From Angustibacter luteus (GTDB taxonomy: Bacteria > Actinomycetota > Actinomycetes > Actinomycetales > Angustibacteraceae): a DNA stretch of 64,000 nucleotides. The notes below the pieces were generated by a model. That model saw only the letters and a program-made list of their open reading frames with translations. It searched no databases and had not been told where the DNA came from. Made by a program: the position numbers and the translations under genes. The stretch spans positions 310,001 through 374,000 of the forward strand of contig NZ_BAABFP010000008.1 in NCBI RefSeq assembly GCF_039541115.1, in the 5' to 3' direction. This document shows, one piece after another, positions 12,050-58,992 of this stretch (its first letter is position 1; each line of letters starts with the position of its first letter).

Positions 12050-12176
12050 TGACCCCACCCGCACGACACGCTTCCGCCACCCAGTCCGGTTTCCGCCACC
12101 CGAGCCGGTTCCTGGGGAGGAAACCCGGCCCGGGCGGCGGAAAGCGGCCTGAGCGGCGGAAGCGTGGGTGGCGTTA
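12050..12176. mobile_element. Miniature inverted-repeat element (MITE/REPIN-like), non-autonomous relative of 23475-24730
   Basis: Arms 12067-12110 and 12123-12166 are inverted (37/44); left arm 38/42 identical to 23494-23535; 12125-12170 is 44/46 identical to 24675-24720; ends at the TAA of the convergent gene. Confidence 0.7.
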
Positions 12177-15327: not shown

Positions 15328-17508
15328 ATGACCGTCGCGATCGAGCCCGCCGGCCGGCAGCAGCCCGCCGAGCAGGACCCCGAGCGTTTCCTGGACCGGG
15401 AGACCAGCTGGCTGCAGTTCAACGAGCGCGTGCTGCAGCTCGCCGAGGACCCGACGCTCCCGCTGCTCGAGCGCGCCCGCTTCCTGGCCATCTTCGCCAG
15501 CAACCTGGACGAGTTCTTCATGGTCCGGGTGGCCGGCCTCAAGCGTCGCATCGCCACCGGCATCGCGGTCCGCTCGGCCGCCGGCCTCGAGCCGCGCGAG
15601 GTGCTGGAGCAGATCAGCTCGCTCGCCCAGGAGCTCATGCAGCGGCACGCCCGGGTGTTCCAGGACGACGTCCGCCCGGCGCTGGCCAGCGAGGGCATCA
15701 CCGTCGTGCGCTGGGACGAGCTGAGCACCCTCGAGCAGGAGCGCCTGCAGGAGATGTTCCGCGAGCAGATCTTCCCGGTGCTGACGCCGCTGGCCGTCGA
15801 CCCGGCGCACCCGTTCCCCTACATCTCCGGGCTGTCGCTGAACCTGGCGGTGGTGGTCCGCAACACCAAGACGTTCAAGGAGCACTTCGCGCGGGTCAAG
15901 GTGCCGCCGCTGCTCCCCCGGTTCATCGCCGTCGAGGACGTCGGCGGCTCGGCCGCCGGGGTCGAGCCCGCCCTCGCCGACCCGTACAAGTCTCGGTTCG
16001 TGCCGCTCGAGGACATCATCGCCGCGCACCTGGACCAGCTGTTCCCGGGCATGGACGTGATGACCCACCACAGCTTCCGGGTCACCCGCAACGAGGACCT
16101 CGAGGTCGAGGAGGACGACGCCGAGAACCTGCTGCAGGCACTCGAGAAGGAGCTCATGCGTCGCCGGTTCGGGCCGCCGGTGCGGTTGGAGGTGGACGAC
16201 GACGTCGACGACCACGTGATGGACCTGCTGGTCCGCGAGCTCGGGGTCTCCGCGAGCGAGGTCTACCGCCTGCCCGCCCCGCTGGACCTGACCGGCCTGA
16301 ACCTGGTCGCCGACCTGGCCCGCAGCGAGCTGCGCTACCCCTCGTTCGTGGCCGGCACGCACCGGGACCTCACCGAGGGCATCGAGACCAGCAAGCCGGG
16401 CGACATCCTGGCCGCGATGCGGATGCACGACGTGCTGCTGCACCACCCGTACGACTCGTTCTCGACGTCGGTGCAGGCGTTCCTGGAGCAGGCCGCCGCC
16501 GATCCGCGGGTGCTGGCCATCAAGCAGACGCTCTACCGCACCAGCGGTGACTCGCCCATCGTGGACGCGTTGATCGACGCGGCCGAGGCGGGCAAGCAGG
16601 TGCTGGCGATCGTCGAGATCAAGGCGCGCTTCGACGAGCAGGCGAACATCAGCTGGGCGCGCAAGCTCGAGCAGGCCGGCGTGCACGTCGTCTACGGCAT
16701 CGTCGGGCTCAAGACGCACGCCAAGCTGGCACTCGTCGTCCGGCAGGAGGCCGACGGGCTACGTCGCTACTGCCACATCGGAACCGGCAACTACAACCCG
16801 AAGACCGCGCGCCTGTACGAGGACCTCGGCCTGCTCACCACCGACCCGAAGGTCGGCGAGGACCTGACTCGGCTGTTCAACCAGCTGTCCGGCTACGCGC
16901 CGCGCACCCGGTTCAAGCGGCTGCTGGTCGCGCCGCGGTCGTTGCGCAGCGGGCTGATCGAGCAGATCGACAACGAGATCGCGCACGCCGACGCCGGGCA
17001 CCCCGCGTCCATCGCCCTGAAGATGAACTCGATCGTGGACGAGTCCATCATCGACGCGCTGTACCGGGCCTCCGGTGCGGGCGTGTCCGTCGACGTCCTG
17101 GTGCGCGGCATCTGCGCGATCCGGCCGGGCGTGCCCGGCCTGAGCGAGAACATCCGGGTGCGCAGCGTGCTGGGCCGGTTCCTGGAGCACTCGCGGGTCT
17201 TCATGTTCGGCCCGGCCGACCGCGAGCCGACCGAGACGGCCTGCTGGATCGGCAGCGCGGACATGATGCACCGCAACCTGGACCGGCGCGTCGAGGCGCT
17301 GGTCCGCCTGGAGAACCCGGTGCACGTGGCCGAGCTGCGCACCCTGCTCGACACCGCCATGAGCGACGAGACGTCGTCCTTCCACCTCGGCGCGGACGGC
17401 GGGTGGACCAGGCGCCACCTGGACGAGCACGGGGTGGCGTTGCAGGACCTGCAGACCGTCGTGGCGGAGCGGCTCGGCCGGCAGCGGCGCAAGGCCCGCC
17501 GGCACTAG
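15328..17508 (+). CDS. ppk1: Polyphosphate kinase 1
   Basis: [50 protein letters not shown] motifs. Confidence 0.97.
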
Positions 17509-17543
17509 TGCGGCCGACGGCCGGCCCCTCGACGCCGAAGTCC

Positions 17544-18302
17544 CTACTGCCCCATGGCGTGCACGCCGCCGTCGACGTGCACGATCTCGCCCGTGGTGGC
17601 CGGGAACCAGTCGGACAGCAGCGCCACGCAGGCCTGAGCGGCCGGTACCGGGTCGTTGACGTCCCAGCCCAGCGGCGCCCGCGCACCCCAGGTGTCCTCG
17701 AACGCCTGGAAGCCCGGGATGGACTTGGCGGCAGTGGTCCGGATCGGGCCGGCGCTGACCAGGTTGGCGCGCACGCCCAGCGGCCCGAGATCCCTGGCGC
17801 AGTAGCGGTTCACCGCCTCGAAGGCGGCCTTGGACACGCCCATCCAGTCGTAGACCGGCCAGGCGTAGGAGCCGTCGAACGTCAGCCCCACGATGGACGA
17901 CCCACGCTGCAGCAGCGGCTGCGTCGCGACCGCCAGCGCCTTGAGCGAGTACGCCGAGGTGTGCAGCGCGGTCGCGACGTCGTCCCAGCCGGCCTCGAGG
18001 AAGTTGAACGCCCCGGCCGGCGCGAAACCGATCGAGTGCACCACGCCGTTCAGCCGGTCGGTGTGCTCGCCGACCCGCTCGGCCAGCGACGCCAGGTGGT
18101 CGGTGTCGGTGACGTCGAGCTCGAGCACCGGCGCGGCCGCGGGCAGCCGGCGAGCGATCACCTGGGTGATCTTCATCGTGCGGCCGAACGAGGTGAGCAC
18201 GACCTCCGCGCCCTGCTCCTGGGCCAGGCGGGCCACGTGGAACGCGATCGAGGAGTCGGTCAGCACTCCGGTCACGAGCAGCTTCTTGCCCTCGAGCAGC
18301 AT
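17544..18302 (-). CDS. fabI: Enoyl-ACP reductase (FabI/InhA)
   Basis: LLEGKKLLVTGV..DSSIAF, HSIGFAP, YDWMGVSKAA, AGPIRT, VHVDGG; start at ATG 18302. Confidence 0.92.
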   Translation of the reverse strand: MLLEGKKLLVTGVLTDSSIAFHVARLAQEQGAEVVLTSFGRTMKITQVIARRLPAAAPVLELDVTDTDHLASLAERVGEHTDRLNGVVHSIGFAPAGAFNFLEAGWDDVATALHTSAYSLKALAVATQPLLQRGSSIVGLTFDGSYAWPVYDWMGVSKAAFEAVNRYCARDLGPLGVRANLVSAGPIRTTAAKSIPGFQAFEDTWGARAPLGWDVNDPVPAAQACVALLSDWFPATTGEIVHVDGGVHAMGQ

Positions 18303-18418
18303 GCGACGTCCTCTCCCTGGGGTGGTCGTACCGGTCCGCTTTGCGGACAGGTTGTGGAGCATACCGAGCACCGGTGCCACCATCGGTCCATGAGGCCGAC
18401 CACGCCCCGAGGCTGCCG

Positions 18419-19390
18419 GTGACCGCGCAGGTGGTCGCCCTGCCCGCACCGGTGGACGACGGCACCGTGCGGGCCGCCGGTGCGCTGCTCTGGCGCGGGC
18501 GCGGCAAGGGGCTCGAGGTCGCCGTCGTGCACCGGCCCAAGTACGACGACTGGTCGTGGCCGAAGGGGAAGCTGGACCCGGGTGAGTCCTGGGCGGAGGC
18601 CGCGGTCCGCGAGGTGCTGGAGGAGACCGGCCTGCACGCCCGCCTGGGCATCCCCCTGCCGCTGGCCCGGTACGAGGTCGGCACCAGCCGCCCCTACCGG
18701 CGCAAGGTCGTGCAGTACTGGGCCGCGCAGGTGGTGGCCAGCGGCGGGCACCTGACCGACGAGGTGGACGAGGTGCGCTGGCTACCCGCCGACCAGGCCC
18801 GCGGTCGCCTGCACTACCGGCGCGACCAGGTGCAGCTCGACGCGCTGATCGAGGCCGACGCCCATGGCACCATCGACGCCCGGCCGCTGCTCGTCGTCCG
18901 GCACGCGAGCAGCGTGTCGCGTCGTCGGTGGAAGCAGGACGACGTCCAGCGCCCGCTCGACGAGGCTGGTCGCGAGCGCGCGAGCGAGCTGATCCCGTTG
19001 CTGTCCGCCTACCAGGTGCAACGGCTGGTGACCTCGGACGCCGAGCGCTGCGCGGCGACGCTGGCGCCGTACGCGCGGGCGACCGGTGGCCGGCTACGCG
19101 GCCGGCACGCTCTCAGCGAGGAAGGGTTCGCCGCCGACGCCGGGGGCGCCGTGAGGGTCGTGGCCAAGCTGCTGGCCAAGGGTGAGCCGGCCGCGCTGTG
19201 CACGCACCGCCCGGTGCTGCCGACCGTGCTCGGGGCCCTCGCGGAGCGGTCGGCGTCCGAGCGGGTGGCCGCCGCGCTGCGCGAGTCCGCGGGCCCCGGC
19301 CTGGTCAAGGGTGAGGTCCTGGTGGCACACGTGAGCGGTCAGGGCGAGGACGCCCGGGTCGTCGCCGTGGAACGGCACGACACGTACTGA
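18419..19390 (+). CDS. mutT1: MutT1-like NUDIX hydrolase + histidine phosphatase domain
   Basis: HRPKYDDWSWPKGK and AAVREVLEETG Nudix box; VRHA, RPLD, RC and CTH phosphatase motifs. Confidence 0.88.
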   Translation: MTAQVVALPAPVDDGTVRAAGALLWRGRGKGLEVAVVHRPKYDDWSWPKGKLDPGESWAEAAVREVLEETGLHARLGIPLPLARYEVGTSRPYRRKVVQYWAAQVVASGGHLTDEVDEVRWLPADQARGRLHYRRDQVQLDALIEADAHGTIDARPLLVVRHASSVSRRRWKQDDVQRPLDEAGRERASELIPLLSAYQVQRLVTSDAERCAATLAPYARATGGRLRGRHALSEEGFAADAGGAVRVVAKLLAKGEPAALCTHRPVLPTVLGALAERSASERVAAALRESAGPGLVKGEVLVAHVSGQGEDARVVAVERHDTY

Positions 19391-19398
19391 CTCAGCTC

Positions 19399-19508
19399 GT
19401 TCACCTGGCGCTCGCCGCAGGGCCCGGTGCCGGACGACGACCCGCCCGCAGGCGTTCACCCCCCGTTCACCTGGGTCCGGCCATCGCTTCACTCAGCCTG
19501 CTTAGCGT
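19399..19508 (+). promoter_or_regulatory. PHO-box array (PhoP/RegX3 type) and -10 of the pst operon
   Basis: GTTCAC at 19399, 19454 and 19465, CTTCAC at 19487, all in an 11-nt register; TAGCGT at 19503. Confidence 0.8.
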
Positions 19509-19565
19509 CCGTAGCGACGCGGCGCCCTGCCACGTCGCGACCTCACACGAAAGACGGACGACACT

Positions 19566-20660
19566 GTGACGATCAAGCGAGTGGGCCGGTTCGCCGGCGT
19601 GGCGCTCGTCGGCGCCCTGGCCCTGACGGCCTGCGGCTCCGACAACAACAGCAACGACGCCGCGGGGGCTGCCTCGTCCAGCTCGTGCCCCTCCGGCACG
19701 CTGAACGGCGAAGGCTCCTCGGCGCAGAAGAACGCGATCGACGAGGCCATCGCCTCCTTCGGTGACACGTGCTCGGCGGCCAAGGTCAACTACAACCCGA
19801 CCGGCTCCGGCGCGGGCATCAAGCAGTTCATCGCCGCCCAGGTCGACTTCGCCGGCTCCGACTCCGCCCTCAACGCCGACAAGGGCGAGCCGGCCGACGC
19901 GGCCAAGCGCTGCCAGGGCAACCCGGCCTGGAACCTGCCCATGGTCACCGGCCCGATCGCCGTCGCCTACAAGCTCGACGGCGTCGACAAGCTGGTCGTG
20001 ACGCCCGAGCTCGCGGCCAACATCTTCAGCGGCAAGATCACCACCTGGAACGACCCGGCGATCGCCAAGGTCAACCCGGACGCGAAGCTGCCGTCGACCG
20101 CCATCAAGGTGTTCTTCCGCTCCGACGAGTCCGGCACCACCGAGAACTTCACCAAGTGGCTGCACGCCGCTGCGCCGTCCGCCTGGACCGCCGACCCGGG
20201 CAAGAAGTGGACCGGCAAGGGCGAGGGCAAGGAGAAGTCGGCCGGCGTCACCGACGGTGTGAGCAACACCGACGGCGGCATCACCTACGTCGAGTGGTCG
20301 TACGCGAAGGACGCCAAGCTCGGCGTCGCGCAGGTCGACAACGGCGGCGGCCCGGTCGAGCTCACCGCCGACACGGTGTCCAAGTCCGTGGCGACCGCGA
20401 CCCAGGTGGGGACCGGTAACGACCTGGCCCTCAAGCTGGACTACGCGACCAAGGAGCCCGGCGCCTACCCGGTCATCCTGGTCACCTACGAGGTCGTCTG
20501 CAGCAAGGGCCTGGAGGCCGGCCAGACCGCGCTCCTGAAGTCCTTCCTGACGCACTTCTCGGGCACCGAGTTCCAGGGCACCCTGCCGGACCTCGGCTAC
20601 GCGCCGCTGCCCAGCGACCTGCAGTCCAAGGTGACCGCGGCCGTCGCCGCGATCAGCTGA
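19566..20660 (+). CDS. pstS: Phosphate ABC transporter substrate-binding lipoprotein
   Basis: LTAC lipobox; GSSAQ, GSGAG, DFAGSD, RSDESGTT motifs. Confidence 0.96.
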   Translation: MTIKRVGRFAGVALVGALALTACGSDNNSNDAAGAASSSSCPSGTLNGEGSSAQKNAIDEAIASFGDTCSAAKVNYNPTGSGAGIKQFIAAQVDFAGSDSALNADKGEPADAAKRCQGNPAWNLPMVTGPIAVAYKLDGVDKLVVTPELAANIFSGKITTWNDPAIAKVNPDAKLPSTAIKVFFRSDESGTTENFTKWLHAAAPSAWTADPGKKWTGKGEGKEKSAGVTDGVSNTDGGITYVEWSYAKDAKLGVAQVDNGGGPVELTADTVSKSVATATQVGTGNDLALKLDYATKEPGAYPVILVTYEVVCSKGLEAGQTALLKSFLTHFSGTEFQGTLPDLGYAPLPSDLQSKVTAAVAAIS

Positions 20661-20676
20661 CCCAACGCCGGTGCCA

Positions 20677-20715
20677 AGCCGCCTCTCCCGTGCCGGGAAC
20701 ACGGGAGAGGCGGCT
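20677..20715 (+). terminator. Stem-loop between pstS and pstC (attenuator or mRNA stabiliser)
   Basis: Perfect 16-bp IR agccgcctctcccgtg / cacgggagaggcggct, 7-nt loop. Confidence 0.75.
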
Positions 20716-20752
20716 GGTTTCCCTTCGGGGGCAACGATGACGAGAGGCTGCG

Positions 20753-21769
20753 ATGTCCGTAGCGACACCACCGGCTGACCTGCTCGGGGACGGCGACCCG
20801 CACGACCCGGCCTCGTCCGGGCCCGGCGACGGCGCGTCCACCGGGCGCCTGGGTGACCGGCTCTTCGCCGGCGCCGCCCGCGGGTCCGGCCTGCTGATCA
20901 TCGCCATGGTCACGCTGGTCGGCGTCTTCCTGGTCAGCCAGGCCGTCCCGTCGCTGGCCGACAACCACGCCAACTTCCTCACCTCCCGGGTCTGGGACGT
21001 GGACGGGCCGACCCTGCGGTTCGGCATCGCCGACCTGCTCTGGGTCACCGTGATCGTCGCGACGGTGGCGATGATCATCGCGGTGCCGATCGCGATCGGG
21101 GTCGCGCTCTTCCTCACGCAGTACGCCCCCAGGCGCCTGGCCAGCCCGTTCGCCGCGCTGGTCGACCTGCTCGCCGCGGTGCCGTCGATCATCTTCGGCC
21201 TGTGGGGCATCAAGATCCTCGGACCCTACGTGCTGCACGCCCAGGGTTGGATCGAGACCGCGTTCGGCTGGTTCCCGCTGTTCTCGTCGGACACCACCAT
21301 CAACTCGGCCGGCACCATCTTCCTCGCCTCGATCGTGCTGGCGATCATGATCCTGCCGATCGTCACCGCGCTGTCCCGCGAGGTGTTCGCCCAGACCCCG
21401 AACGCGCACAAGGAAGCGGCGCTCGCCCTGGGGGCCACCAAGTGGGAGGTCATCCGGACCGCCGTCCTGCCGTTCGGGCGTCCGGGAGTCATCTCCGCCG
21501 CCATGCTCGGCCTCGGTCGGGCGCTGGGCGAGACCATCGCCGTCACGATCATCGTCAGCAGCCTGGCCGGTGGGACGTCGTGGTCGTGGTCGCTGTTCAA
21601 CGGCGGCGAGACCTTCGCGAGCCGCATCGCCAACAACGCGGCCGAGTTCGACAGCCCGCAGAAGGCCGGTGCGTTCATTGCCGCCGGCCTGGTCCTGTTC
21701 ATCCTGACGTTCATCGTCAACGCGATCGCTCGAGTGGTCATCGAGCGCAGGAAGGCGTTCACCGAATGA
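20753..21769 (+). CDS. pstC: Phosphate ABC permease PstC
   Basis: [33 protein letters not shown]. Confidence 0.95.
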
Positions 21770-22677
21770 GCATCCTGACGGCCGACCCGCCGACCGCCGA
21801 GGTCGGGGACGACCAGCTGACGCACCGTTCGCGCGGGCGGCAGGTGCGCAACGCCGCCGCCACCGTGATCGTGGTGGCCTGCTTCCTGATCGCCATCGTC
21901 CCGCTGGCATGGATCCTGTTCACCGTGGTGAGCAAGGGCTTCCACCTGCTGCTCGACGTCCACTGGTGGACCAACTCCCAGCAGGGGATCACGGCTCGGC
22001 GGGTCGGCGGCGGCGCGTACCACGCGATCGTCGGCACCTTGCTGCAGGCACTGGTCACCGCGATCATCTCGGTGCCGATCGGCGTCCTGACCGCCGTCTA
22101 CCTGGTGGAGTACGGCCGCGGGAAGCTCGCGCGCGTGGTCAGCTTCATGGTGGACATCCTCACCGGCATCCCGTCGATCGTCGCCGCCCTGTTCATCTAC
22201 GCCCTCTGGGTCACCACGCTCGGGCTGAACCGGGTCGCGTTCGCCGTCTCGCTGGCCCTGGTGCTGCTGATGGTGCCGGTCGTCGTCCGGTCCACCGAGG
22301 AGATGCTCAAGCTCGTCCCGAACGAGCTGCGCGAGGCGTCCTACGCCCTCGGGGTGCCGAAGTGGCGCACGATCGTGCTGGTCGTCCTGCCGACGGCCTT
22401 CAGCGGCATCGTCACCGGCGTCCTGCTCGGCCTGGCCCGGGTGATGGGCGAGACCGCGCCGCTGCTGATCCTCGGGCCGTACGCGAAGTCCATCAACACC
22501 GACCTTTTCAACGGGTTCATGGCCGCACTGCCGACCATGATCAACCAGGACCGCACCGAGGTGCTCCAGCCCGCGCTGGACCGGGTCTGGGCCGCCGCGC
22601 TCACCCTGGTGCTCCTGATCCTCGTCCTCAGTATCGCCGGGCGGATCGTGGCTCGCCTCGGTGCCGTCAAGCAGTAG
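21766..22677 (+). CDS. pstA: Phosphate ABC permease PstA
   Basis: ATGA overlap with pst[30 protein letters not shown]. Confidence 0.95.
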
Positions 22678-22700
22678 TCACAACGGAGTCTGGAGCCACT

Positions 22701-23477
22701 ATGGCCAAGCGCATCGACGTCAAGGACCTGAACGCCTACTACGGCGGTTTCAAGGCGGTCGAGGACGTCACGATGACCGTCGAGCCGCGATCGGTGACGG
22801 CGTTCATCGGGCCGTCCGGCTGCGGCAAGTCGACCTTCCTGCGGACCCTGAACCGGATGCACGAGGTGATCCCGGGCGCCCGCGTCGAGGGGTCGATCCG
22901 GCTGGACGACCGTGACCTGTACGGGGGCGAGGTCGACCCGGTCGCCGTGCGCCGCACGGTGGGCATGGTGTTCCAGCGACCGAACCCGTTCCCGACGATG
23001 TCGATCTTCGACAACGTCGCCGCGGGCCTGAAGCTGAACGGCGTGAAGAACAAGGCCCGGGTCTCGGAGGTCGTCGAGAAGTCGCTGCGCGCCGCGAACC
23101 TGTGGACCGAGGTCAAGGACCGGCTCGCCAAGCCGGGCGCGGGGCTCTCGGGCGGTCAGCAGCAGCGGCTGTGCATCGCCCGGGCCATCGCGGTCGAGCC
23201 GCAGGTGCTGCTGATGGACGAGCCGTGCTCCGCGCTCGACCCGATCTCGACGCTGGCGATCGAGGACCTGATCAGCCAGCTGAAGTCGCGGTACACGATC
23301 GTCATCGTCACGCACAACATGCAGCAGGCTGCGCGGGTCTCGGACCGGACCGCCTTCTTCAACCTCGCGGCGACCGGCAAGCCCGGCCGGCTCATCGAGA
23401 TCGGCGACACCACGAAGATCTTCAGCAACCCCGTCGAGCGCGCCACCGAGGACTACATCTCCGGCCGCTTCGGCTAA
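22701..23477 (+). CDS. pstB: Phosphate ABC ATPase PstB
   Basis: [38 protein letters not shown]. Confidence 0.97.
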
Positions 23478-24730
23478 CCCCCACGCCCCCCCCCGCTTCC
23501 GCCACTCAGTCCGGTTTCCGCCGCCCAGGCCGGTTTCGGAGTCCGTAGACCGGCTTGGGTGGCGGAGGCCCTGTGGACGACGGTCTCGGATCGACGCGCT
23601 CGACGGCCAGGCTGGGGCTATGCCTGAGTCACGTGAGCTGCCGATGCCCTTCAGCCGCGAGCAAGCCCTGGCACGCGGCTGGACCCGCCACCAGGTCTGC
23701 CACCGGGTCCGCACCGGCCAGTGGCTCGCCCTGCGTCGGGGGTGGTACGCCGAGGCGACGCGATTTCATGAGCTGGGATCTCGCGCTCGCCACCTCGTCT
23801 CGCTAGTCGCCACCCTGCGCTACCGGGGTGCACCGGACGTCGGGAGCCACTTGTCGGCAGCGGCGGCCTGGGGCTGGCCACTCCCCTTCAACGGTTCCGG
23901 GCCGGCGACGGTGACCAGCCCCGACCTGGCGAGGTCCGGCCGCCGGCGCGCGTCGCTCGTCGTCCAGATCGCCACCTTGCCGCAACTCGACGTCCGCCAC
24001 AGGACGATCCGCATCGGCGACGACCACCACACCATCGCGCTCACCAGCCCGGCGCGAACGCTGGCCGACTGCCTCCGGCACCTCCGGCAGGAGGACGCCG
24101 TGGCGATCATGGACGCGGCGATCCGGATGGGCGACAGCAGCATCGAAGCCGTCCGCGAGGTGCTCGACCGGCAGGAGCCGTGGCCGTACCTGGCCAACGG
24201 CAGGCACGGCTTGGAGCTGGTCGACCCGCGTCGCGAGTCCTACCTGGAGAGCTACTCGTTCGTACGGCTGGCCCATCGCGGCCTCCATCCCGAGCCCCAG
24301 GTGACGATCCGCGACGCCACCGGCCGGTTCGTGGCGCGAGTGGACGGCTGGCTGGACGAGCACGCCATTGCCCTCGAGGCCGACGGTCGGGCCAAGTACC
24401 TGTCCGAGGCCGGTGACGCCCCGAGCACCGGGGACGTCGTCCGCAGCGTGCGGTCGACCATGGCCGCCCAGATGGAGCGCGAGCTGGAGCTGCGCTCGCT
24501 CGGGGTCACCGTCGTCCGCTGGGGGACCTCCGAGGCGGTGCGACACCCGGATCGGCTTGCCGGGAGGGTCGAGGCCGCCAAGCGCACGGCCAGCCGGGCC
24601 GCGTTCACCGGCACGGTCGAGAGGGCAGATCCCTGCAGCCTCCGCCACCCAACCCGCGTTTGGGGCACGGCTCACCGGCCCGAGCGGCGGAAACCGGCCT
24701 GAGCGGCGGAAGCGTGGGTGCTGGGGGTTA
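23475..24730. mobile_element. Putative inverted-repeat-bounded element carrying an AbiEi/DUF559-like gene
   Basis: Termini TAACCCCCA (23475-23483) and TGGGGGTTA (24722-24730); about 42-bp arms at 23494-23535 and 24674-24716; inner perfect 15-bp IR at 23555-23569 and 24638-24652. Confidence 0.65.
23620..24702 (+). CDS. AbiEi-like wHTH + PD-(D/E)XK (DUF559/Vsr-like) protein
   Basis: FSREQAL..G...W..LRRGWY N-terminus; SHLSAA, TSPARTLAD, ES.LES, PEPQV.I, ARVD...EADG.AKY, RE..LRSLG..VVRW. Confidence 0.8.
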   Translation: MPESRELPMPFSREQALARGWTRHQVCHRVRTGQWLALRRGWYAEATRFHELGSRARHLVSLVATLRYRGAPDVGSHLSAAAAWGWPLPFNGSGPATVTSPDLARSGRRRASLVVQIATLPQLDVRHRTIRIGDDHHTIALTSPARTLADCLRHLRQEDAVAIMDAAIRMGDSSIEAVREVLDRQEPWPYLANGRHGLELVDPRRESYLESYSFVRLAHRGLHPEPQVTIRDATGRFVARVDGWLDEHAIALEADGRAKYLSEAGDAPSTGDVVRSVRSTMAAQMERELELRSLGVTVVRWGTSEAVRHPDRLAGRVEAAKRTASRAAFTGTVERADPCSLRHPTRVWGTAHRPERRKPA

Positions 24731-25720
24731 CATGAAGAGGTGGATCACGAAGTAGCTCACGGCGGCGACGATGCCGGCGCCGGGCATGGTCAGCACCCAG
24801 GCGGTGACGATGTTCGTGGCCACACCCCAGCGGACGGCGGAGAGCCGCTTGGTCGCGCCGACGCCCATGATCGCGGTCGTGATGACGTGCGTCGTCGAGA
24901 TGGGCGCACCGAACACGCGACCGGCGATCCACAGGATCGAGGCCGCCGTGGTCTCGGCGGCGAAACCCTGCGGCGGGTCGAGGTGGATGATGCGCCGTCC
25001 CAGGGTGCGCATGATCCGCCAGCCGCCGGAGTAGGTGCCGAGGCTGATCACCGTCGCCGAGATCAGCAGCACCCAGGGCGGGATTCCGGAGCCGGTGTGG
25101 TACCCGCCGACCGTCAGGGCGAGGACGACGACACCGGCGGTCTTCGAGGCGTCCTGCAGCCCGTGGCCGAACGCCATCGCGGCCGCTGAGACGGTCTGCG
25201 CCGACCGGAAGCCACGAGCGGTCTTGCCCGGGTTCGACCGCCGGAACAGCCACAGGATGACCAGCATCAGGATGTAGCCACCGATGAGGCCGACGAAGGG
25301 CGACAGGATCATCGGGATGACGACCTTGTCCCAGACGCCGGACCACAGCACGGTCGCCGAGCCGGCGAGCGCGGCGCCCACCAGGCCACCGATCAGCGCG
25401 TGCGAGGACGAGGACGGCAGGCCGAACCACCAGGTCAGCAGGTTCCAGCCGATCGCGCCGATCAGCGCGGCGGCGCAGATCGCCAGTCCGGTCGAGCCGG
25501 ACGGCGGGTCGATGATGCCCTTGCCGACGGTGTCGGCGACCCTCTGACCGGCGAACGCACCGACGAAGTTGGCCACCGCCGCCATGCCCAGCGCCACCCG
25601 GGGGGTCAGGGCCCGGGTCGAGATCGAGGTCGCGATCGCGTTGGCCGAGTCATGGAACCCGTTGGTGTAGTTGAACACCATGGCAAGCGTGATGACCGCG
25701 ATGATCGGGAGCAGGTCCAC
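24728..25720 (-). CDS. pit: PiT family inorganic phosphate transporter
   Basis: NGFHDSANAIAT, GLPSSSSHAL, HGLQDASK, PISTTH. Confidence 0.95.
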   Translation of the reverse strand: MDLLPIIAVITLAMVFNYTNGFHDSANAIATSISTRALTPRVALGMAAVANFVGAFAGQRVADTVGKGIIDPPSGSTGLAICAAALIGAIGWNLLTWWFGLPSSSSHALIGGLVGAALAGSATVLWSGVWDKVVIPMILSPFVGLIGGYILMLVILWLFRRSNPGKTARGFRSAQTVSAAAMAFGHGLQDASKTAGVVVLALTVGGYHTGSGIPPWVLLISATVISLGTYSGGWRIMRTLGRRIIHLDPPQGFAAETTAASILWIAGRVFGAPISTTHVITTAIMGVGATKRLSAVRWGVATNIVTAWVLTMPGAGIVAAVSYFVIHLFM

Positions 25721-25725
25721 GAGGG

Positions 25726-26346
25726 TCAGGACTCCTTGACCGCGATGCTCTCGACCGTGTGCGCCACCGTCTCGAAGGCGTCGATGGCGTGCTCGAGGCC
25801 CTCGACGACGTCCTTCAGCTTCAGGATGGCGGTGGCCTTGAGGTCACCGTCGAACAGCTCGGCGAGCAGGCGGCGGTACACCTGGTCGCCCTGGTTCTCG
25901 AGCCGGTTGATCTCGATCCAGTACTCCGCGAGGTCCTTCATCGAGCGCAGCCGGGGCATCGCCTCGGCGGTCAGCTCGGACATCCGGACCAGCACCTCGA
26001 CCTGGCTGGCGACGCCCGCCGGGAGCTGGCCGATCTGGTACAGCACGATGCGGTCGACCGCGGACTCCATGTGGTCCATGCAGTCGTCCAGGTTCGAGGC
26101 CAGCGAGTAGATGTCCTCGCGGTCGAACGGCGTGATGAACGAGGAGTTCACCTTGCGCATGATCTCGTGGGTCGACTCGTCGGCGGCGTGCTCGGCGTCC
26201 TTCATCTGCCGGGCCAGGTCCTCGCGGGCCGAGGTGTCCGCGCCGAGCACCTGGGTGAGCAGCGCGCTGCCCTTGACCAGGTGCTGCGACTGGTCGGAGA
26301 ACAGGTCGTAGAAGCTGGTGTCCTTCGGGGAGAGACTGAATCTCAC
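25726..26346 (-). CDS. DUF47 / PhoU-like pit accessory protein
   Basis: EHAAD, FITPFDREDI, ENQGD, IAVKES; start at GTG 26346. Confidence 0.92.
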   Translation of the reverse strand: MRFSLSPKDTSFYDLFSDQSQHLVKGSALLTQVLGADTSAREDLARQMKDAEHAADESTHEIMRKVNSSFITPFDREDIYSLASNLDDCMDHMESAVDRIVLYQIGQLPAGVASQVEVLVRMSELTAEAMPRLRSMKDLAEYWIEINRLENQGDQVYRRLLAELFDGDLKATAILKLKDVVEGLEHAIDAFETVAHTVESIAVKES

Positions 26347-51815: not shown

Positions 51816-51888
51816 TGGGCCCCGTGGGGATCGAACCCACAACCCGCGGATTAAAAGTCCGCTGCTCTGCCAGTTGAGCTAGAGGCCC
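51816..51888 (-). tRNA. tRNA-Lys (anticodon TTT)
   Basis: GGGCCTCTAGCTCAACTGGCAGAGCAGCGGACTTTTAATCCGCGGGTTGTGGGTTCGATCCCCACGGGGCCCA; 73 nt, CCA not encoded. Confidence 0.97.
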
Positions 51889-51908
51889 GGGACATGAGCG
51901 TTATAACG

Positions 51909-51943
51909 GGGAGAACCCTCGGGAGAACCCTCGGGATAACTCT
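51909..51943. repeat. 12-bp tandem repeat next to the tRNA 5' end
   Basis: gggagaaccctc x2 plus a degenerate third copy gggataactct. Confidence 0.75.
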
Positions 51944-52459
51944 GGTGTCATTCACCCACGATCCGAGCACGAGTATGCCGCAGACCATGCCCGCGTCATC
52001 CCGCCGCCTGCGCGAGCAGCTTTGCTGCCCTACGGTGCACTCCCGGCTGTGGCGCGCCGCCGCAGGCGACGTAGCGCGCGTCAGTCGCAGACCTCGGATT
52101 GATGTTGCTCTCGTCCGGCGAGCGACACGATGCCGGGCCTTCTCCAGTCCCTCGCCGGGCCGCCGGAGCCAGCAGTGCAGCGCGCATCCGGCGGCCCCCT
52201 AGGCCCTGCACTTCGCCCACTTAGACGCTGCACTCCGCCCAACGTGACGCGCCTGCTACCCACCACGGCGGGACGGTTGAGCATGCTCAGCCCGTTCCAG
52301 TTCGGAGCCCTTCACACGATCGCCGAAACGTCGGCATGATCAACACAACACCCGTACTCGGAATGGCGGGCTAGGCTCGAATGACCAAAACGGCTTGCAG
52401 ACGCGGCCTGAGAACCATCCACCCAGAGCGCCAACCGCGACAGCCCCAGGAGTGATGCT

Positions 52460-52894
52460 GTGTCGAGTGAGCCCGAAGCCATTGCGGGTCTATTGAGGTC
52501 TCAGGGGCAGATGAGTTTCGTGGAGCCGGCAACCAACGCGGACATCGAGGCCTTCGAGGCGAGGCATGAGCTTCCACTGCCGTCTCAGCTCAAGCAATGG
52601 CTACTCGTTTCGGACGGTGGAGACTTCTTCCTTCCAGCAGGGTTTCAGTTGCTAGGCGTGGCACATCTTCCATTGATTGATGTTGATGACCCCGATCGAC
52701 CGGATGACAGCTACGTCGTGATCGGCGCGTTGTCGTCCGGTGACCCAGTTCTGTGTGAGAGATCAAGTGAGCGAATCTCGATCTACAACCATGAGGCCGG
52801 AAGGATCGAGGACGACGAATCCTTCCCCGACTTCTTCACCTTTCTGACCGGTTTGGTTGCCGTCGTTGGCGCCGGTGAAGACGATGTCGAGTAG
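52460..52894 (+). CDS. SMI1/KNR4 (SUKH) family immunity protein
   Basis: PAT..DI.AFE....LPLP...KQWL..SDGG; VIG..S.GD; IY.HE; F..F..FL. Confidence 0.88.
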   Translation: MSSEPEAIAGLLRSQGQMSFVEPATNADIEAFEARHELPLPSQLKQWLLVSDGGDFFLPAGFQLLGVAHLPLIDVDDPDRPDDSYVVIGALSSGDPVLCERSSERISIYNHEAGRIEDDESFPDFFTFLTGLVAVVGAGEDDVE

Positions 52895-53660
52895 GACTGC
52901 AGGAGCCAGCCGCGCGATCAAGGAGGCATGGGAGAACGAGCGGCGTCTCGTGCTCGAAGGCAAAGGAACTCGTGACTGGTCGGAAGAGCACCAGAGACAG
53001 ATCAAGGACAAGGGCAAGGCTTACGACGACCAGGGCAGGGCCTTCGAAGGCCAACACATGAAAAGTGTCTCGTCGCATCCGGAGTATCAGGACGACCCTC
53101 GAAACATCCAATTCCTCTCGCGCGAAGAACACCTCGCAGCCCATGGTGGCAATTGGAAGAATCTGACCAACGGCTACTACGACCCAGCGTCCAGGAGAAC
53201 GTTAAGCTTCGGAAACAGCCCTCCCCAACCGTGCGTCGAGATGACGCTCACGAATCCGCTGTATGTCGATCTCCTCGGCGCAGCCAGCACGCAGACTTCC
53301 GGCAGCGCGAGTAAGAATGCGGATTCTCTGACGGACGCGACTGCGGCCTCAACGGGCCGCTGGCGACAGGGGGCCCGATCACTGCAGCGCGTTGCCCAGC
53401 AGGCGTCGAAGGATCCACGCGTGCGGGCCGCGGTCGTTTCTGTCATCGCCACAGTGGCCACGGAAGCGCTCAACCGCGCCAGGTCTGCGGGGACACATCG
53501 CACCAACGGTCGCTCGACGCATCCATCCATGAGGGCGGCACCGGGCCCCGACACCGATTCTCCGTTTGTAGGCCGTCAGTCGCCCGAGGCGCATAGCGTG
53601 AGTGGATACACCAAAAGGAACGGGACCAACGTTCGGCCGTACCGACGAGGCGGGAAGTAG
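52884..53660 (+). CDS. Tox-GHH-like (teneurin C-terminal-like) HNH nuclease protein
   Basis: AIKEAWENERRLV..GKGTRDWS, FEGQHMKSV..HPEY..DPRNIQFL...EH..AHGG; overlaps the SMI1 gene by 11 nt. Confidence 0.75.
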   Translation: MSSRTAGASRAIKEAWENERRLVLEGKGTRDWSEEHQRQIKDKGKAYDDQGRAFEGQHMKSVSSHPEYQDDPRNIQFLSREEHLAAHGGNWKNLTNGYYDPASRRTLSFGNSPPQPCVEMTLTNPLYVDLLGAASTQTSGSASKNADSLTDATAASTGRWRQGARSLQRVAQQASKDPRVRAAVVSVIATVATEALNRARSAGTHRTNGRSTHPSMRAAPGPDTDSPFVGRQSPEAHSVSGYTKRNGTNVRPYRRGGK

Positions 53661-53989
53661 GACGGGGACTGCTGCACCGATCGGTGACACCTTGACGTGC
53701 GTCATATCGCCGCGTCAGCGTGCAGTCGAACGAACCAGCAAGGAGCAGCTGGAGGGAGCACTTCGGCATCGTGCAGCGTAGGTAGGCGATGGAGTTGCGT
53801 CCTTGCACCGCCTGAAGCCTGCGCGTGTACTCGACGACGTCCCCGGAAGCCTTTCCTGTAGAGGCGTCATTCCGCGGCATGGCGGCCACCTCATGTCTGG
53901 CGCCTTTCTCCGGTGGGATTCTTCCGACTCGCAGTTGGCAGACACGAGTAGTGTCGATTGCCGGGGTTCAGACGCGATTGGGGAGTGCC

Positions 53990-55258
53990 GTGGCTCGACG
54001 TGGGTTCTTCGCTGAGATCCACTACCAGAACCAGCAGGCAGAGAAGCGGAAGCGACAGCAAGCTGCGGCTTCGGCGCGCGCCCAGGCCGCAGCTCAGCGA
54101 GATCTTGAGCGTGCCCGCCGAGAGTCGGAACGTGCCATGGCTGCGGCGACGAGGGCCAGCGTGGCCGATCAGAAGCAGGCAGAGAAGCTGGCGGCCCAGC
54201 TGCATGCCGAAGAGCGCGCTGCCGAGGTTGCCGCCATGAATGCCCAACTGGCAGAGACCTACACGGAGATCGATGGGCTCTTGGCAGCGACGCTTGCGGT
54301 GGATGACTACGTGGACCTCGAGTCGTTGAGGGTCGCCTCCGTACAGCACCCGCCGTTCAGCCCTGGGCACCTGGCGACGACAACTCCGACGATGGATCCG
54401 CTGGTGTATCCGCCCGAGCCTGTGTACGAGGAACCAGCCGCCCCGAAAGGCATGTTCGCGTCGAAGAAGAAGCACGAGGATGCGATCGCGCGGGCTCAGG
54501 CCGCACATCAGGAAGCCGTCCGGCGCTGGAACGAGCACAACCAGGCCCTCTATGCCGGACATGTCGCCGAGTTCGAGCGCCGCCGGGTGGCTGAGCAACA
54601 ACGGCTGACCCAGTTGGCGGCCGCCGAGGATCGCTATCGCCAGGAATGTCAGGCCCGAGAGGAAGAGGCTCGCTCGCGAAACGAGGCGATCACTAAGTTC
54701 ATCAACGATCTCGCCTTCGACGTCCCCTCCGCGATTGAAGAGTACGTGGGCGTCGTGCTGTCCAACTCGGTCTATCCGGAGTCCTTCCCTGTTGCGCACG
54801 AGCACACGTTCGACCTAGCTACCCGCGAGCTGACCATGACGGCGATGGTCCCAGAGCCAGCCGAGGTTCCGGTCGTCAAGGAGTTCCGATACGTCAAATC
54901 GAAGGATGAGATCAGCCCCGCGCCCTTGCCGGCGCGCGAGCAGAAGGATCGGTATGCCGGCGCGGTTTGGCAGGTCGCCGTACGAACCCTCCACGAAGTA
55001 TTCGAGGCAGACCGGGCCGGCAGGATCCACTCCATCTCCTTATCAGTGGCCACCAGCCGGATCGCCCCGGCGACAGGGCTTACGGAGTCCATCCCGCTCG
55101 TCCAGGTCGCGGCCGACCGGAACGCCTTCACCTCCTTCGACCTGGCCAGAGTTGTGCCCAAGGCCACGCTGGAGCATCTCGGGGCCGCGTTGTCGAAGTC
55201 GCCGTTCGACCTCACTCCGGCAGACATCGGTCCCGGCGTACGGACTCGAAAGGTCTGA
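53990..55258 (+). CDS. Coiled-coil protein resembling the N-terminal part of long Mrr-type restriction proteins, with no nuclease domain
   Basis: Charged helical N-half; L.NS.YPE.F, P.VKEFRYVK.KDEI, VAVRTLHEVFEADR, FDLARV.P.ATL.HLGA..SKSP; GGGAG RBS before GTG 53990. Confidence 0.65.
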   Translation: MARRGFFAEIHYQNQQAEKRKRQQAAASARAQAAAQRDLERARRESERAMAAATRASVADQKQAEKLAAQLHAEERAAEVAAMNAQLAETYTEIDGLLAATLAVDDYVDLESLRVASVQHPPFSPGHLATTTPTMDPLVYPPEPVYEEPAAPKGMFASKKKHEDAIARAQAAHQEAVRRWNEHNQALYAGHVAEFERRRVAEQQRLTQLAAAEDRYRQECQAREEEARSRNEAITKFINDLAFDVPSAIEEYVGVVLSNSVYPESFPVAHEHTFDLATRELTMTAMVPEPAEVPVVKEFRYVKSKDEISPAPLPAREQKDRYAGAVWQVAVRTLHEVFEADRAGRIHSISLSVATSRIAPATGLTESIPLVQVAADRNAFTSFDLARVVPKATLEHLGAALSKSPFDLTPADIGPGVRTRKV

Positions 55259-55262
55259 CACC

Positions 55263-56720
55263 ATGCGATTCAATCCGCCGCCGGGCTGGCCAACGCCCCC
55301 GTCGGGATGGACGCCACCGGCCGGCTGGTCCCCTGACCCTTCCTGGCCGCAGCCGCCGCCCGGATGGCAACTGTGGCTCTCAGACGAAGCGGACGTCGCT
55401 GACGCACGCGAATCGTCGAACGCGCCGCCGACGATCCCACCAGCCCGGCCGGATTCCGCTACCCCAAGACCGGTCACCCCAATCTCAGCTGGCGATGCGC
55501 TCGAACCGGGCACATCCGCGCCGCCGACACCAGACTCAGGGACTGTAGAACCGTTCGCGTCCAGCTCGGACGGCGGCGAAATCTCGGCGCTACGTGCCAG
55601 GGTTGCCGAGCTAGAAGCGACCCTGGCCCAAGTGCAGTCGGGGCTGGATCCGGTGGAGTTGGACGACCAGCGCGTTTTGCAGGACGTCGGCATCTACCGC
55701 TACCACCACCCCCTCGAAGACGCGGCTGCCTACAAGGAGCGCCTGAAGGCGCTCGAGGCGCAGATGGGCGACATCATCAAGATCGGCCGTGGGGTGCTGG
55801 CAGCGGACATGTTCACCTTCTCCGGCTCGCTGGCCAAGGGCCGCAAGATGACCGCAGACCTGTCCAAGCTGATGCTGCGCGCCTACAACGCCGAAGCCGA
55901 CAACTGCGTCCGGTCGCTTCGCTCAGGCAACATCGTCACCGCGAAGAAGCGACTGGAGTCGGCCGTTACGGCGATCCAGCGCCTGGGCGCGATGATGGAA
56001 ATGCGGGTCAATCCCGACTACCACGCGCTACGGCTGCAGGAGCTCGAGCTCACCGCGGACTACCAGATGAAGGTGCAAGAAGAGCGCGAGCGAGCTCGCG
56101 AGGAGCGCGAGCAGCTTCGTGAGCAGCGGCAGGCCGAGCAGGAGCTGGCGGCCGAGCGCGCGCGACTGGACAAAGAACGCGCACACTACGAGAGCGCACT
56201 GGTGACGCTACGGGATAAGGGAGACGACACTGCTGCGGACGAACTGGCTGGTCGGCTAGCCGAGATCGACGCCGCGATCGAGGCCAACGACTACCGCATC
56301 GCCAACATCCGAGCAGGCTATGTGTACGTGATCTCCAACATCGGCGCTCTCGGACCAGACATGGTCAAGATCGGCATGACCCGCCGCCTGGAGCCTCTGG
56401 ACCGAGTGCGCGAACTCGGCGACGCATCGGTCCCGTTCCCCTATGACGTGCATGCTCTGTACTTCTCCGAGGACGCGGTCACCCTCGAGAACGAGCTACA
56501 CAAAACGTTCGCCGACCGAAAGGTGAACCTCGTCAACGAGCGACGAGAGTTCTTCTTCGCCACCCCAGCCGAGGTACAAGCAGTACTGCTGGAGAAGGCA
56601 GGCGGACTGCTGCAGTTCGTCGAGAAGCCGGAGGCACTCCAGTACTTCCAGAGTCGAACCCGCTGGCCGCAATGGGTCAACCCGCCTAATGAGACCGGCA
56701 TTCGGGGCGACCGCGAGTAG
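55263..56720 (+). CDS. DUF4041 + GIY-YIG (T5orf172/MUG113) nuclease with Pro/Trp-rich N-terminus
   Basis: MRFNPPPGWP..GW repeats; GIYRY, KLMLRAYNAEAD, LRLQELEL; AGYVYVISNIGA..KIGMTRR, ELGDASVPFPYDVH, LE.ELH, REFF. Confidence 0.88.
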   Translation: MRFNPPPGWPTPPSGWTPPAGWSPDPSWPQPPPGWQLWLSDEADVADARESSNAPPTIPPARPDSATPRPVTPISAGDALEPGTSAPPTPDSGTVEPFASSSDGGEISALRARVAELEATLAQVQSGLDPVELDDQRVLQDVGIYRYHHPLEDAAAYKERLKALEAQMGDIIKIGRGVLAADMFTFSGSLAKGRKMTADLSKLMLRAYNAEADNCVRSLRSGNIVTAKKRLESAVTAIQRLGAMMEMRVNPDYHALRLQELELTADYQMKVQEERERAREEREQLREQRQAEQELAAERARLDKERAHYESALVTLRDKGDDTAADELAGRLAEIDAAIEANDYRIANIRAGYVYVISNIGALGPDMVKIGMTRRLEPLDRVRELGDASVPFPYDVHALYFSEDAVTLENELHKTFADRKVNLVNERREFFFATPAEVQAVLLEKAGGLLQFVEKPEALQYFQSRTRWPQWVNPPNETGIRGDRE

Positions 56721-56884
56721 GTCTCTGGCTCTAGCCAATGCGCCGCCGAGGTCCGTCGCGCCGGCGCCAGGACGTGCGTCATTCCGCCGCGAGCGTCGCC
56801 CGCACTTGCCCGTACTGGTATGCGCAGGGGTATCTGCGATCTGCTGGGCCGGGGCCAAGGCTCGATGCGCTCGGATCGCGAGGG

Positions 56885-58216: not shown

Positions 58217-58395
58217 GACCTAAGGACCTACCGAGCCCAGAAGCCCGAGAGGACCAGGTCACCTCACACCGACGAAGAGGCTTGCCCACTACTCCATGGC
58301 AACCGCACGCGCGTCATTCCGCCGCGAGGCAGACTCCAGCGATGCGCCGTCCGTCGACTCTGACGCACGCGCCTGCCTTCTCTCGGCGACAATCC

Positions 58396-58806
58396 TCAAG
58401 CCAGCTCTGAGGCAGTGTGGCCGGCAACTGCCGCCGGTTCGAACCGCAACTCGACGCGACTCCAGCAGTCGTCCCGAAGAGTCGCAACCTCAAGCCCGCA
58501 GCTCGCGCACAGGAGGTTGGGGCCGTCCAGCCCGTCGTGGGCGCAGCACCCGCTGTTGCGGCGAGGGTCTGGGTGTGGGCTCAACCCGACGCCGTCGACA
58601 GGATTGATTGTCAGGCAGCCCAGGGTGCTGGTTGGGATGTCGCCGTCCCAGCCGACTGGGTTCGGATCGACAGCGAGGGACCCGATCGGAAGGGTCGGCC
58701 GATATCCATCGGGCAGTTGTTCCGGCTCGGGCATCTCCGCAAGCTGTTCGACTGGTCGTGAAAGGTGCTCGCCGCAGCGACGGCAGATGAGGACGACGAG
58801 ACCCAT
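58396..58806 (-). CDS. Cys-rich putative Zn-binding hypothetical protein
   Basis: CRRCG, GCCAHDG.DGPNLLCASCG, DDCW; start at ATG 58806. Confidence 0.7.
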   Translation of the reverse strand: MGLVVLICRRCGEHLSRPVEQLAEMPEPEQLPDGYRPTLPIGSLAVDPNPVGWDGDIPTSTLGCLTINPVDGVGLSPHPDPRRNSGCCAHDGLDGPNLLCASCGLEVATLRDDCWSRVELRFEPAAVAGHTASELA

Positions 58807-58992
58807 GGCCCCAAGCATTGCTCATGCCAGCTCGTGGCAGCCACCACTTCCCGCCTTGCGGCGGCCGAGCCAGTGTCAATCGGCCGCCTGGCGGGCTGCC
58901 ATGTCGATGGGGATAGCGTCGACGGGTTCGCAGCCTTGCTGCGGTGGCGGTGGGCGTGGCTGGGCGTGGTGCAGTCGCCGCGCGAGGTGAGC

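Follow-up and report, generated by a model that had tools for sequence, protein, structure and literature searches.

The closest described relatives of the system treated here are of four kinds, for which the cited articles are drawn on in part. In REPIN/RAYT systems, a single-copy chromosomal gene lies between members of a dispersed family of extragenic repeats, inverted doublets of about 50–100 bp with a variable spacer (10.1101/2021.07.10.451892; PMC3733652), whereby several systems occur per genome, plasmids and phages rarely carry them, and the repeat type tracks the gene. REPtrons and TIRtrons are treated in PMC3733652 as well. In AbiE toxin-antitoxin systems, AbiEi, like Rv2827c, binds inverted half-sites of about 23 bp, one monomer on each, with a distance of 3 or 13 bp between them; together they span 49–59 bp upstream of the own gene (PMC3985639; PMC7319586). 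The EDxHD homing endonuclease I-Bth0305I (catalytic residues E170, D196, H213, and D222) joins an N-terminal DNA-binding part to a C-terminal nuclease, forms a dimer, protects about 60 bp, and cleaves the centre of a pseudo-palindrome (PMC3239194), and DUF559 has been grouped with Vsr (PMC3424549). Insertion sequences carry a gene between inverted sequences and have many short gene-less relatives, the MITEs (miniature inverted-repeat transposable elements). Furthermore, DUF559 genes are enriched among predicted inversion targets (PMC9881135), and mycobacteria contain unexplained stem-loop families, for which the parts consulted of the respective article name no partner gene (PMC2267715). Here we analyzed a 64,000-nucleotide stretch of Angustibacter luteus (contig NZ_BAABFP010000008.1, positions 310,001 to 374,000; in the following, the window), in which a gene for a 360-aa protein is enclosed by mirror-symmetric repeats between the convergent genes pstB and pit. 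These flanks are two copies of a dispersed repeat, and most paralogues of the gene are bracketed by another repeat of their own, which suggests a so far undescribed nuclease in charge of its own repeat family rather than a jumping gene. A pairing of this kind between nuclease and repeat was not described in the literature searched, with supplements and most subscription journals being outside the scope of that search.

The Angustibacter system is a member of none of these groups. With REPIN/RAYT systems it has in common the single-copy gene, the dispersed flanking repeats, and all further features listed above. However, an HUH/Tyr enzyme is missing here (PF01797 in 0/5 genomes) and the fold is AbiEi plus Vsr-like, the half-sites have not been described as short palindromes of their own, the span is fixed and the arms do not covary, so that the signal looks double-stranded, and the host belongs to the Actinomycetota, a term that does not occur in the main text of PMC3733652. 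The AbiE systems provide the two-domain fold, a winged helix-turn-helix (HTH) followed by a nucleotidyltransferase (NTase)-like domain, and the inverted half-sites in front of the own gene, but here there is an additional C-terminal nuclease domain, no AbiEii partner was found, a second site lies downstream, and tens of copies are spread over the genome. The EDxHD/Vsr enzymes correspond in the nuclease fold and in the order of the two parts, whereas the present gene is located outside of any intron or intein and between two intact sites instead of interrupting its site, its clade has Lys in place of His, and there is no neighbouring methyltransferase. Insertion sequences and MITEs are similar in the gene between inverted sequences and the short gene-less relatives, but differ in that here there is no multicopy full element, no conserved terminus, and no defined target duplication, and that the gene has resided at one site for a long time. 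The best reading is a system that is RAYT/REPIN-like at the population level, with an unrelated enzyme and a different chemistry; this analogy had been drawn in a preliminary description of the locus, and it is supported by the data.

The A. luteus genome (G000; 4.16 Mb, 72% GC) contains 131 matches to the repeat unit of the flanks (up to 3 mismatches) and 33 clustered loci, designated as family F1. Hence, the flanks are not element-specific termini, as had been proposed, but belong to a dispersed family. Among the F1 pairs in G000 only one encloses a gene, and the gene-less copies are complete dyads that resemble each of the two flanks, not fused left and right ends. A profile search of G000 led to the identification of eight full-length paralogues with 18–30% identity (51% for one pair), seven of which are bracketed on both sides by a dispersed family of their own, and the eighth on the right side only. 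The paralogue families comprise 33, 19, 28, 43, 19, 10, 6, and 19 loci, respectively, whereby F7 and F8 have a core in common. Paralogue-linked families account for the three 16-mers that are most widespread in the genome, and de novo clustering of hairpins yielded nine families with at least three members, six of them paralogue-linked and three not (F9, F10, and F11). When 2123 called genes of 600–1500 bp were screened for bracketing by one family, six were obtained, namely five paralogues and one other gene, while P3 and P6 had been missed by the gene caller. With this codon-based caller, which was written for the analysis (3789 genes), 212 loci of ten families were assigned to 88 convergent, 99 tandem, and 18 divergent spacers and to 7 positions within genes, compared to 167 convergent, 991 tandem, and 543 divergent spacers of at least 60 bp overall (convergent enrichment p 1e-29). 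Thus, the repeats are placed at gene ends, not at promoters.

The nuclease gene is present as a single copy at the pstB-pit site in 5/5 congeners, that is, in all six genomes of the genus, and repeat types were counted over 15 genomes of the family, whose kin are not independent, so that the counts are not statistical tests. The F1 pattern occurs 55, 98, 86, and 25 times in the four genomes whose gene F1 flanks and 0 times in ten others. The flank pattern of G003 was found 25 times in G003 and that of G004 11 times in G004, each with 0 matches in the other 14 genomes, and the pattern of G007/G014 occurs 29, 13, and 2 times within their genus and is absent from 12 others. For F4, a relaxed pattern gave 83, 97, and 92 matches in genomes with paralogue P4; G003 had 1 match and G001 had 3, and in neither of these two was a P4 orthologue found (10 of the 11 G003 profile matches being examined). 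In the trees of pstB and of pit, G000 groups with G003, and a clade made up of the four F1 carriers is rejected (p 1.7e-4 and 2e-66); the nuclease tree contains this clade (87/88, unstarred). It also rejects the pair G004 and G005 (p 1e-13), which has a pstB support of 98/97, so that one allele must have been replaced in place together with its repeats. The expectation that homologues carry repeat pairs of their own was confirmed across the order, where upstream and downstream flanks are alike (score of at least 19) at 34/48 loci compared to 4/400 random genes and 6/2118 cross pairs; this comparison left out pairs among 12 pstB loci and three close pairs and skipped 4/52 loci with short flanks or partial matches. 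Further congener paralogues are bracketed in 16/20 and 10/12 cases. As far as sequences can tell, each paralogue or allele has a dispersed dyad repeat of its own, whose type and presence follow the gene, and we regard the cognate pairing of nuclease and repeat family as very probable. The nuclease family was found in 110/121 genomes of the order and 66/151 genomes of the phylum, the latter tally including three unpublished genomes, which entered into no other result; it amounts to 3095 clusters at 50% identity.

Several observations were made beside these counts. At the P3 site (L157 compared to L136, L168, and L174), four congeners have four different repeats and proteins that are 53–61% identical, and the cassette is inverted in G004. 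Genomes of about 6 Mb (L184, L185, L193, and L195) contain 12–14 paralogues each, the flanks of which are, as we presume, candidates for a resemblance to mycobacterial repeats. A tandem pstB pair is located at L048 (G013:C105), in a genome without a match to the nuclease family. Families F9 (e.g., G000:C2:20986–21049; 24–30 loci) and F11 (e.g., G000:C5:151742–151785; 11–14 loci) have a fixed span and a C skew, and an F9 relic lies at C8:302787, where G003 and G004 hold a paralogue. F10 (G000:C5:308305–308380 and nine other loci) consists of hairpins whose centre is asymmetric and conserved and whose arms vary, for which neither a C skew nor a partner gene was found.

An AlphaFold2 model of the protein from 126 sequences, with a predicted local distance difference test (pLDDT) of 93, comprises a winged HTH (approximately aa 1–52), an AbiEi C-terminal domain (approximately aa 53–202), and a nuclease (approximately aa 203–325). 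The first 202 residues align to AbiEi (6y8q) with a Z score of 12.3 and a root-mean-square deviation (rmsd) of 6.5 over 182 aligned residues (Foldseek E 4.8e-5), and the AbiEi part reaches a Z score of 8.6 against Rv2827c, whereas residues 203–325 align to I-Bth0305I (3r3p; Z 10.7, rmsd 2.4, 96 aligned), 3hrl (Z 10.4), and Vsr (1cw0; Z 10.3). Sequence and model show the complete scaffold of an AbiEi antitoxin, to which a Vsr-like nuclease is fused. Over the 126 members, Pfam matches were obtained for AbiEi_4 (91), DUF559 (12), MTES_1575 (10), and AbiEi_1 (7), while the window protein alone gave only sub-threshold matches to AbiEi_4 and MTES_1575, no family match in NCBIfam, and only 3hrl in a PDB sequence search (E 0.018). 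The Pfam matches of the members, Foldseek, and the fold comparison thus bear out the winged HTH and the PD-(D/E)XK-type nuclease of the preliminary description. E210 and D242 are present in 126/126 sequences, E253 and D255 in 124 each, Q227 in 123, and K259 in 117; from the aligned ranges, E210 and D242 would correspond to E170 and D196 of I-Bth0305I, and the conserved acidic residues imply a presumably active nuclease. Catalysis by the NTase-like middle domain was rejected, since acidic residues are absent at the expected strands. A homodimer prediction scored 0.01 and was not used as evidence. It had also been stated that no AbiEii toxin lies beside the gene, which holds true, because the neighbours are pstB and pit and the AbiEii family (PF08843) was not found in G000 (control positive in 3/14; other NTase toxin families not searched). 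From the claimed lack of recombinase motifs, the part concerning Y1/RAYT transposases was covered and stands (PF01797 in 0/5 genomes; control positive in 6/14). Rfam gave no match, also not to an intron, the nuclease gene being free-standing and intergenic.

The inner span of F1 is 52 bp in 27/33 copies and 53 bp in 6/33, and, among the copies measured, it is fixed in F3 (59 bp, 26/26), F5 (44 bp, 12/12), F8 (46 bp, 17/17), F9 (63 bp, 14/14), F11 (42 bp, 10/10), and F2 (84 bp, 7/7). The agreement of the arms within a repeat equals the expectation from the column frequencies, so there is no covariation, the repeat centre is hypervariable, and G-U pairs on the transcribed strand are not favoured (57 compared to 46, p 0.32). 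Thus, fixed span, missing covariation, and missing G-U bias point to a putative double-stranded protein-binding site for two monomers, not to a hairpin; at the level of the doublet, the hairpin substrate suggested previously is not supported. An RNA-hairpin function was rejected on account of the lack of G-U bias and of arm covariation together with a C skew that also faces gene starts.

The comparison of sites between relatives revealed a turnover of the repeats. Each of the 15 gene-less sites that match the pattern of G003, the sister species, was considered; 12 of them have a syntenic pair in G000, where 10 hold F1 (one of them in an interval with an extra gene), one holds F2, and one is empty. 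The G003 variant is also present at the site corresponding to window position 12072, where the four-unit layout is identical, and G000 retains three relic elements of the G003 type. Hence, a whole repeat population was rewritten in place. For G002, 20 sites among the matches listed (98 in total) were compared, and the 13 syntenic ones correspond to 3 F1 copies, 7 repeat-less sites, and 3 repeats of another family, which shows gain, loss, and exchange of repeats. As for the gene, it occupies 9 of the 17 loci at which pstB and pit converge; 7 others have only a short spacer (74–677 bp) without it, and one was assigned to neither group; a 1361-bp pstB-pit spacer at L227 gave no tblastn match to the nuclease, tblastn being the only search made there. 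Four cassettes of G003 correspond to gene-less sites in G000, P4 lies at clpX in three congeners and elsewhere in G000, and cassettes are inverted in G036 and G004, so that rare swaps, inversions, losses, and one relocation are observed. With a single protein as query, 72,556 plasmid records gave one weak match and 50,697 phage records none. In a search of sequencing runs, no run exceeded a share of 0.11 of the words; contigs that aligned at 80% came from other organisms, and one contig joins 23484 to 24759, only a weak hint of an empty site elsewhere. The discrete mobile element reaching from stop codon to stop codon, which had been the preliminary proposal, is not upheld, as its repeats form a dispersed family of 33 loci and the gene is single-copy and syntenic in 5/5 congeners. 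Such fixed and syntenic presence, which is found within the genus, had been named beforehand as speaking against the proposal; RAYTs behave likewise. The nuclease gene itself moves rarely, and the best explanation is a system that is chromosomal and mostly vertically inherited.

Two further signatures accompany the repeats. C is enriched on the strand reading toward the repeat. Where a gene abuts a repeat, the four-fold degenerate third positions of its last 3 codons are C in 78% of cases compared to 55% in controls, an excess that tapers off within about 20 codons. Sides that face gene starts show the skew too (C 0.47/G 0.25 compared to 0.34/0.35 in the control), as do divergent sites; it is absent for F10. 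This C halo may stem from local re-synthesis, as we infer, or alternatively from selection. TAA stops number 20/232 compared to 66/3557, which accounts for the TAA ends of the preliminary description. The second signature is a 9-mer that we take to be a DnaA box and that occurs at most 150 nt upstream of the gene at 32/48 homologue loci compared to 6/400 random genes, and upstream of 7/8 paralogues of G000. It also precedes dnaA, recA, ftsK, UPF0102, MatE, a DEAD helicase, an integrase, and four DUF222 genes, and is rare in the phylum sample (1/25). A possible regulon of this motif (L143–L155) also includes ThiF, DUF4192, and DUF222(-HNH) genes.

The features of the window are given in Table 1. 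The unit pattern matches nine times in the window compared to 0.36 expected matches, a number reached by 0/100 shuffles; inverted units lie at 23549–23567 (minus strand) in the left repeat and at 24674–24692 and 24693–24711 (minus strand) in the right one, while a decayed plus-strand unit at 24640–24658, which has more than 3 mismatches, is visible in the sequence and lies outside of this count. The mirror symmetry of the flanks around the gene is real, their outer arms forming a 45-nt inverted repeat with 89% identity, and both the perfect 15-bp inverted repeat (23555–23569/24638–24652) and the outermost 9-bp inverted repeat with the two TAA stops (23475–23483/24722–24730) described previously are present. 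The tandem units exist too, but they are 19 bp long instead of about 20 bp, and of the two hairpins claimed, only the left flank folds better than shuffled sequences (z -4.3), in contrast to the right one (z +0.2). The stop codons do not delimit a conserved element: the nine filled pstB-pit sites have TAA/TAA stops in 2, TGA/TGA in 6, and TAG/TGA in 1 case, and conserved stop-to-stop termini were rejected; the terminal 9-mer is not conserved. The left inner dyad ends 52 bp before the start codon and, by analogy to AbiEi, is the probable operator of the nuclease gene. On the other side, the reading frame continues through the right repeat, and residues 343–360 have a pLDDT below 50. The gene-less F1 copy of the window had not been mentioned before. 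The cassette is part of a phosphate cluster (15328–26346), whose other genes we take to be polyphosphate kinase-like, NUDIX-like, pstSCA, and PhoU/DUF47-like. Farther away (51816–59564), a tRNA gene precedes a stretch of little coding potential that contains short open reading frames, presumably integrase-like, and that is possibly a decayed integrated element.

Table 1. Coordinates of the nuclease locus, its repeats, and related repeat copies in the window.
Feature	Position	Strand	Remarks
pstB, left neighbour	22701..23477	+	Pfam ABC_tran; TAA stop 23475–23477 abuts the C-rich flank of the repeat
C-rich outer flank	23478..23496	+	common to paralogue-linked repeat families of G000
Left repeat, extra outer 19-bp unit	23497..23515	+	unit pattern match
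Left repeat, inner dyad, family F1	23516..23567		52 bp: two mutually inverted 19-bp half-sites around a variable centre of 14 bp
DnaA-box-like 9-mer	23572..23580	-	between left repeat and start codon
360-aa nuclease gene	23620..24702	+	winged HTH, AbiEi C-terminal domain, Vsr/I-Bth0305I-like nuclease (predicted); repeat-encoded tail
Right repeat, inner dyad	24640..24692		53 bp, left half-site decayed; overlaps 3' end of gene
Right repeat, extra outer 19-bp unit	24693..24711	-	holds TGA stop of nuclease gene
G-rich outer flank (C-rich on minus strand)	24712..24727	+	seen in the sequence
pit phosphate transporter, right neighbour	24728..25720	-	Pfam PHO4; TAA stop 24728–24730 abuts the flank
Gene-less F1 copy between convergent genes	12072..12161		holds 4/9 unit matches of the window
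F4 copy, cognate to paralogue P4	6611..6667		repeat-family search
F3 copy, cognate to paralogue P3	30670..30733		repeat-family search

A copying and turnover of the repeats that is driven by the nuclease is the explanation that we favour, with a probability of roughly 0.55. One monomer would bind each 19-bp half-site on double-stranded DNA with its AbiEi part, as AbiEi does on its operator, and the copy upstream of the gene would serve as operator for autorepression, whereby the DnaA-box-like site may couple expression to the replication state. The fixed span of 52 bp would place two nuclease domains at the centre, which then nick or cut, and host repair would copy another member of the family in a homing-like gene conversion. 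Such conversion could homogenise old sites upon a change of specificity and occasionally seed a copy at a new gene end; between two repeats, it might now and then swap, invert, or move the enclosed gene, and the local re-synthesis would leave the strand-biased C halo.

A number of observations weigh against this explanation. With 33 sites of its own in the genome, a cutting enzyme would be toxic if it were not tightly repressed, and K259 stands at the position of the His base of Vsr and I-Bth0305I, as far as the inferred register holds; paralogues P3–P8 have His at the apparent position of the general base. The spans of F4 and F6 vary (47–81 bp for F4). G004 keeps 12 F1 matches, though another repeat flanks its gene, and the nuclease tree does not reject the grouping of G000 with G003 (p 0.149). 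At the empty sites, the junctions are too diverged to define a target duplication or a clean junction. In the phylum sample, only 12/25 loci are bracketed, and a paralogue lineage (L126, L138, and L171) has no brackets at all. Finally, F9 (24 loci), F11 (11), and F10 (10) lack a bracketed gene in the G000 assembly; for F9 and F11, which among the 15 genomes occur in G000 only, there is no box signature either, but the assembly consists of 11 contigs with 5 N gaps, in which a partner gene of these two could have been missed. The unbracketed paralogue lineage is truncated in G000 (C5:866008–866391), and its neighbours are, as we assume, carotenoid genes.

Among the alternatives, it seems unlikely, though worth serious attention, that the repeats are simply dispersed sites to which the protein binds and which are kept because they serve the host, for example in organising the chromosome, in providing nicks as entry points for repair, or in an alarm against damage or phages, while they spread and convert by ordinary recombination without the nuclease. 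That the gene keeps one site across the genus and occupies it in two other families, that nearly all genomes of the order have the nuclease family, that the upstream box is common to dnaA, recA, ftsK, UPF0102, and DUF222-HNH genes, and that 10/12 sites are conserved between sister species would all fit such a role. However, the side-by-side presence of eight systems whose repeats are unrelated, together with orphan families and a turnover that differs between lineages, resembles populations of independent replicators, and the conserved acidic residues imply an active nuclease. A host function is compatible with the favoured explanation. Clearly less probable is an autonomous mobile element made up of the gene and its inverted-repeat flanks, of which the gene-less repeats would be MITE-like derivatives. 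The empty spacers at 7/17 convergent pstB-pit loci, the four G003 cassettes with gene-less G000 counterparts, the relocation of P4 from clpX, the inverted cassettes in G036 and G004, and the allele replacement at one site are what one would expect from it, but there is no second near-identical copy besides the diverged paralogues, the site is identical in 6/6 genomes of the genus without a conserved terminus, the single-protein query gave one weak plasmid match and no phage match, and the gene-less copies are complete dyads, not joined ends. Very improbable, and largely refuted by the near-diagonal cognate matrix, is an orphan type IV antitoxin or regulator with an ordinary autoregulatory operator, beside which the repeats would be RNA hairpins (terminators, Rho sites, or stabilisers) or relics of another transposase: the whole AbiEi fold, the inverted repeats bound by AbiEi, the location of the repeats at 3' ends, and the C-rich tracts after stops, which resemble Rho loading sites, speak for it, but the two-sided brackets far exceed those of random genes and cross pairs, G-U bias and arm covariation are missing, the C skew also faces gene starts and occurs at divergent sites, and PF08843, PF01797, and Rfam gave no match.

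For palindromic intergenic repeats in genomes that lack RAYT, the nuclease family provides a candidate enzyme, and a role is proposed for a large protein family whose only labels in profile libraries are antitoxin or DUF559. A single genome contains eight pairs of protein and site, and its relatives offer alleles whose sites differ at few positions, so that specificity and cutting are directly testable. In its widest form, to which we give somewhat less than an even chance, the idea is that the autorepressor of a toxin-antitoxin system acquired a nuclease of the Vsr type and made its operator a self-copying, self-rewriting repeat, with as many as eight or more orthogonal systems in one actinobacterial genome, a DnaA-box-like switch, and a strand-biased mutation halo in the neighbouring genes. 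If this is true, REPIN-like replicators would have arisen twice and independently by different chemistry, in this case on double-stranded DNA via breaks and gene conversion, gene ends would be subject to a local bias in mutation, and a natural library of long-site nucleases would be available.

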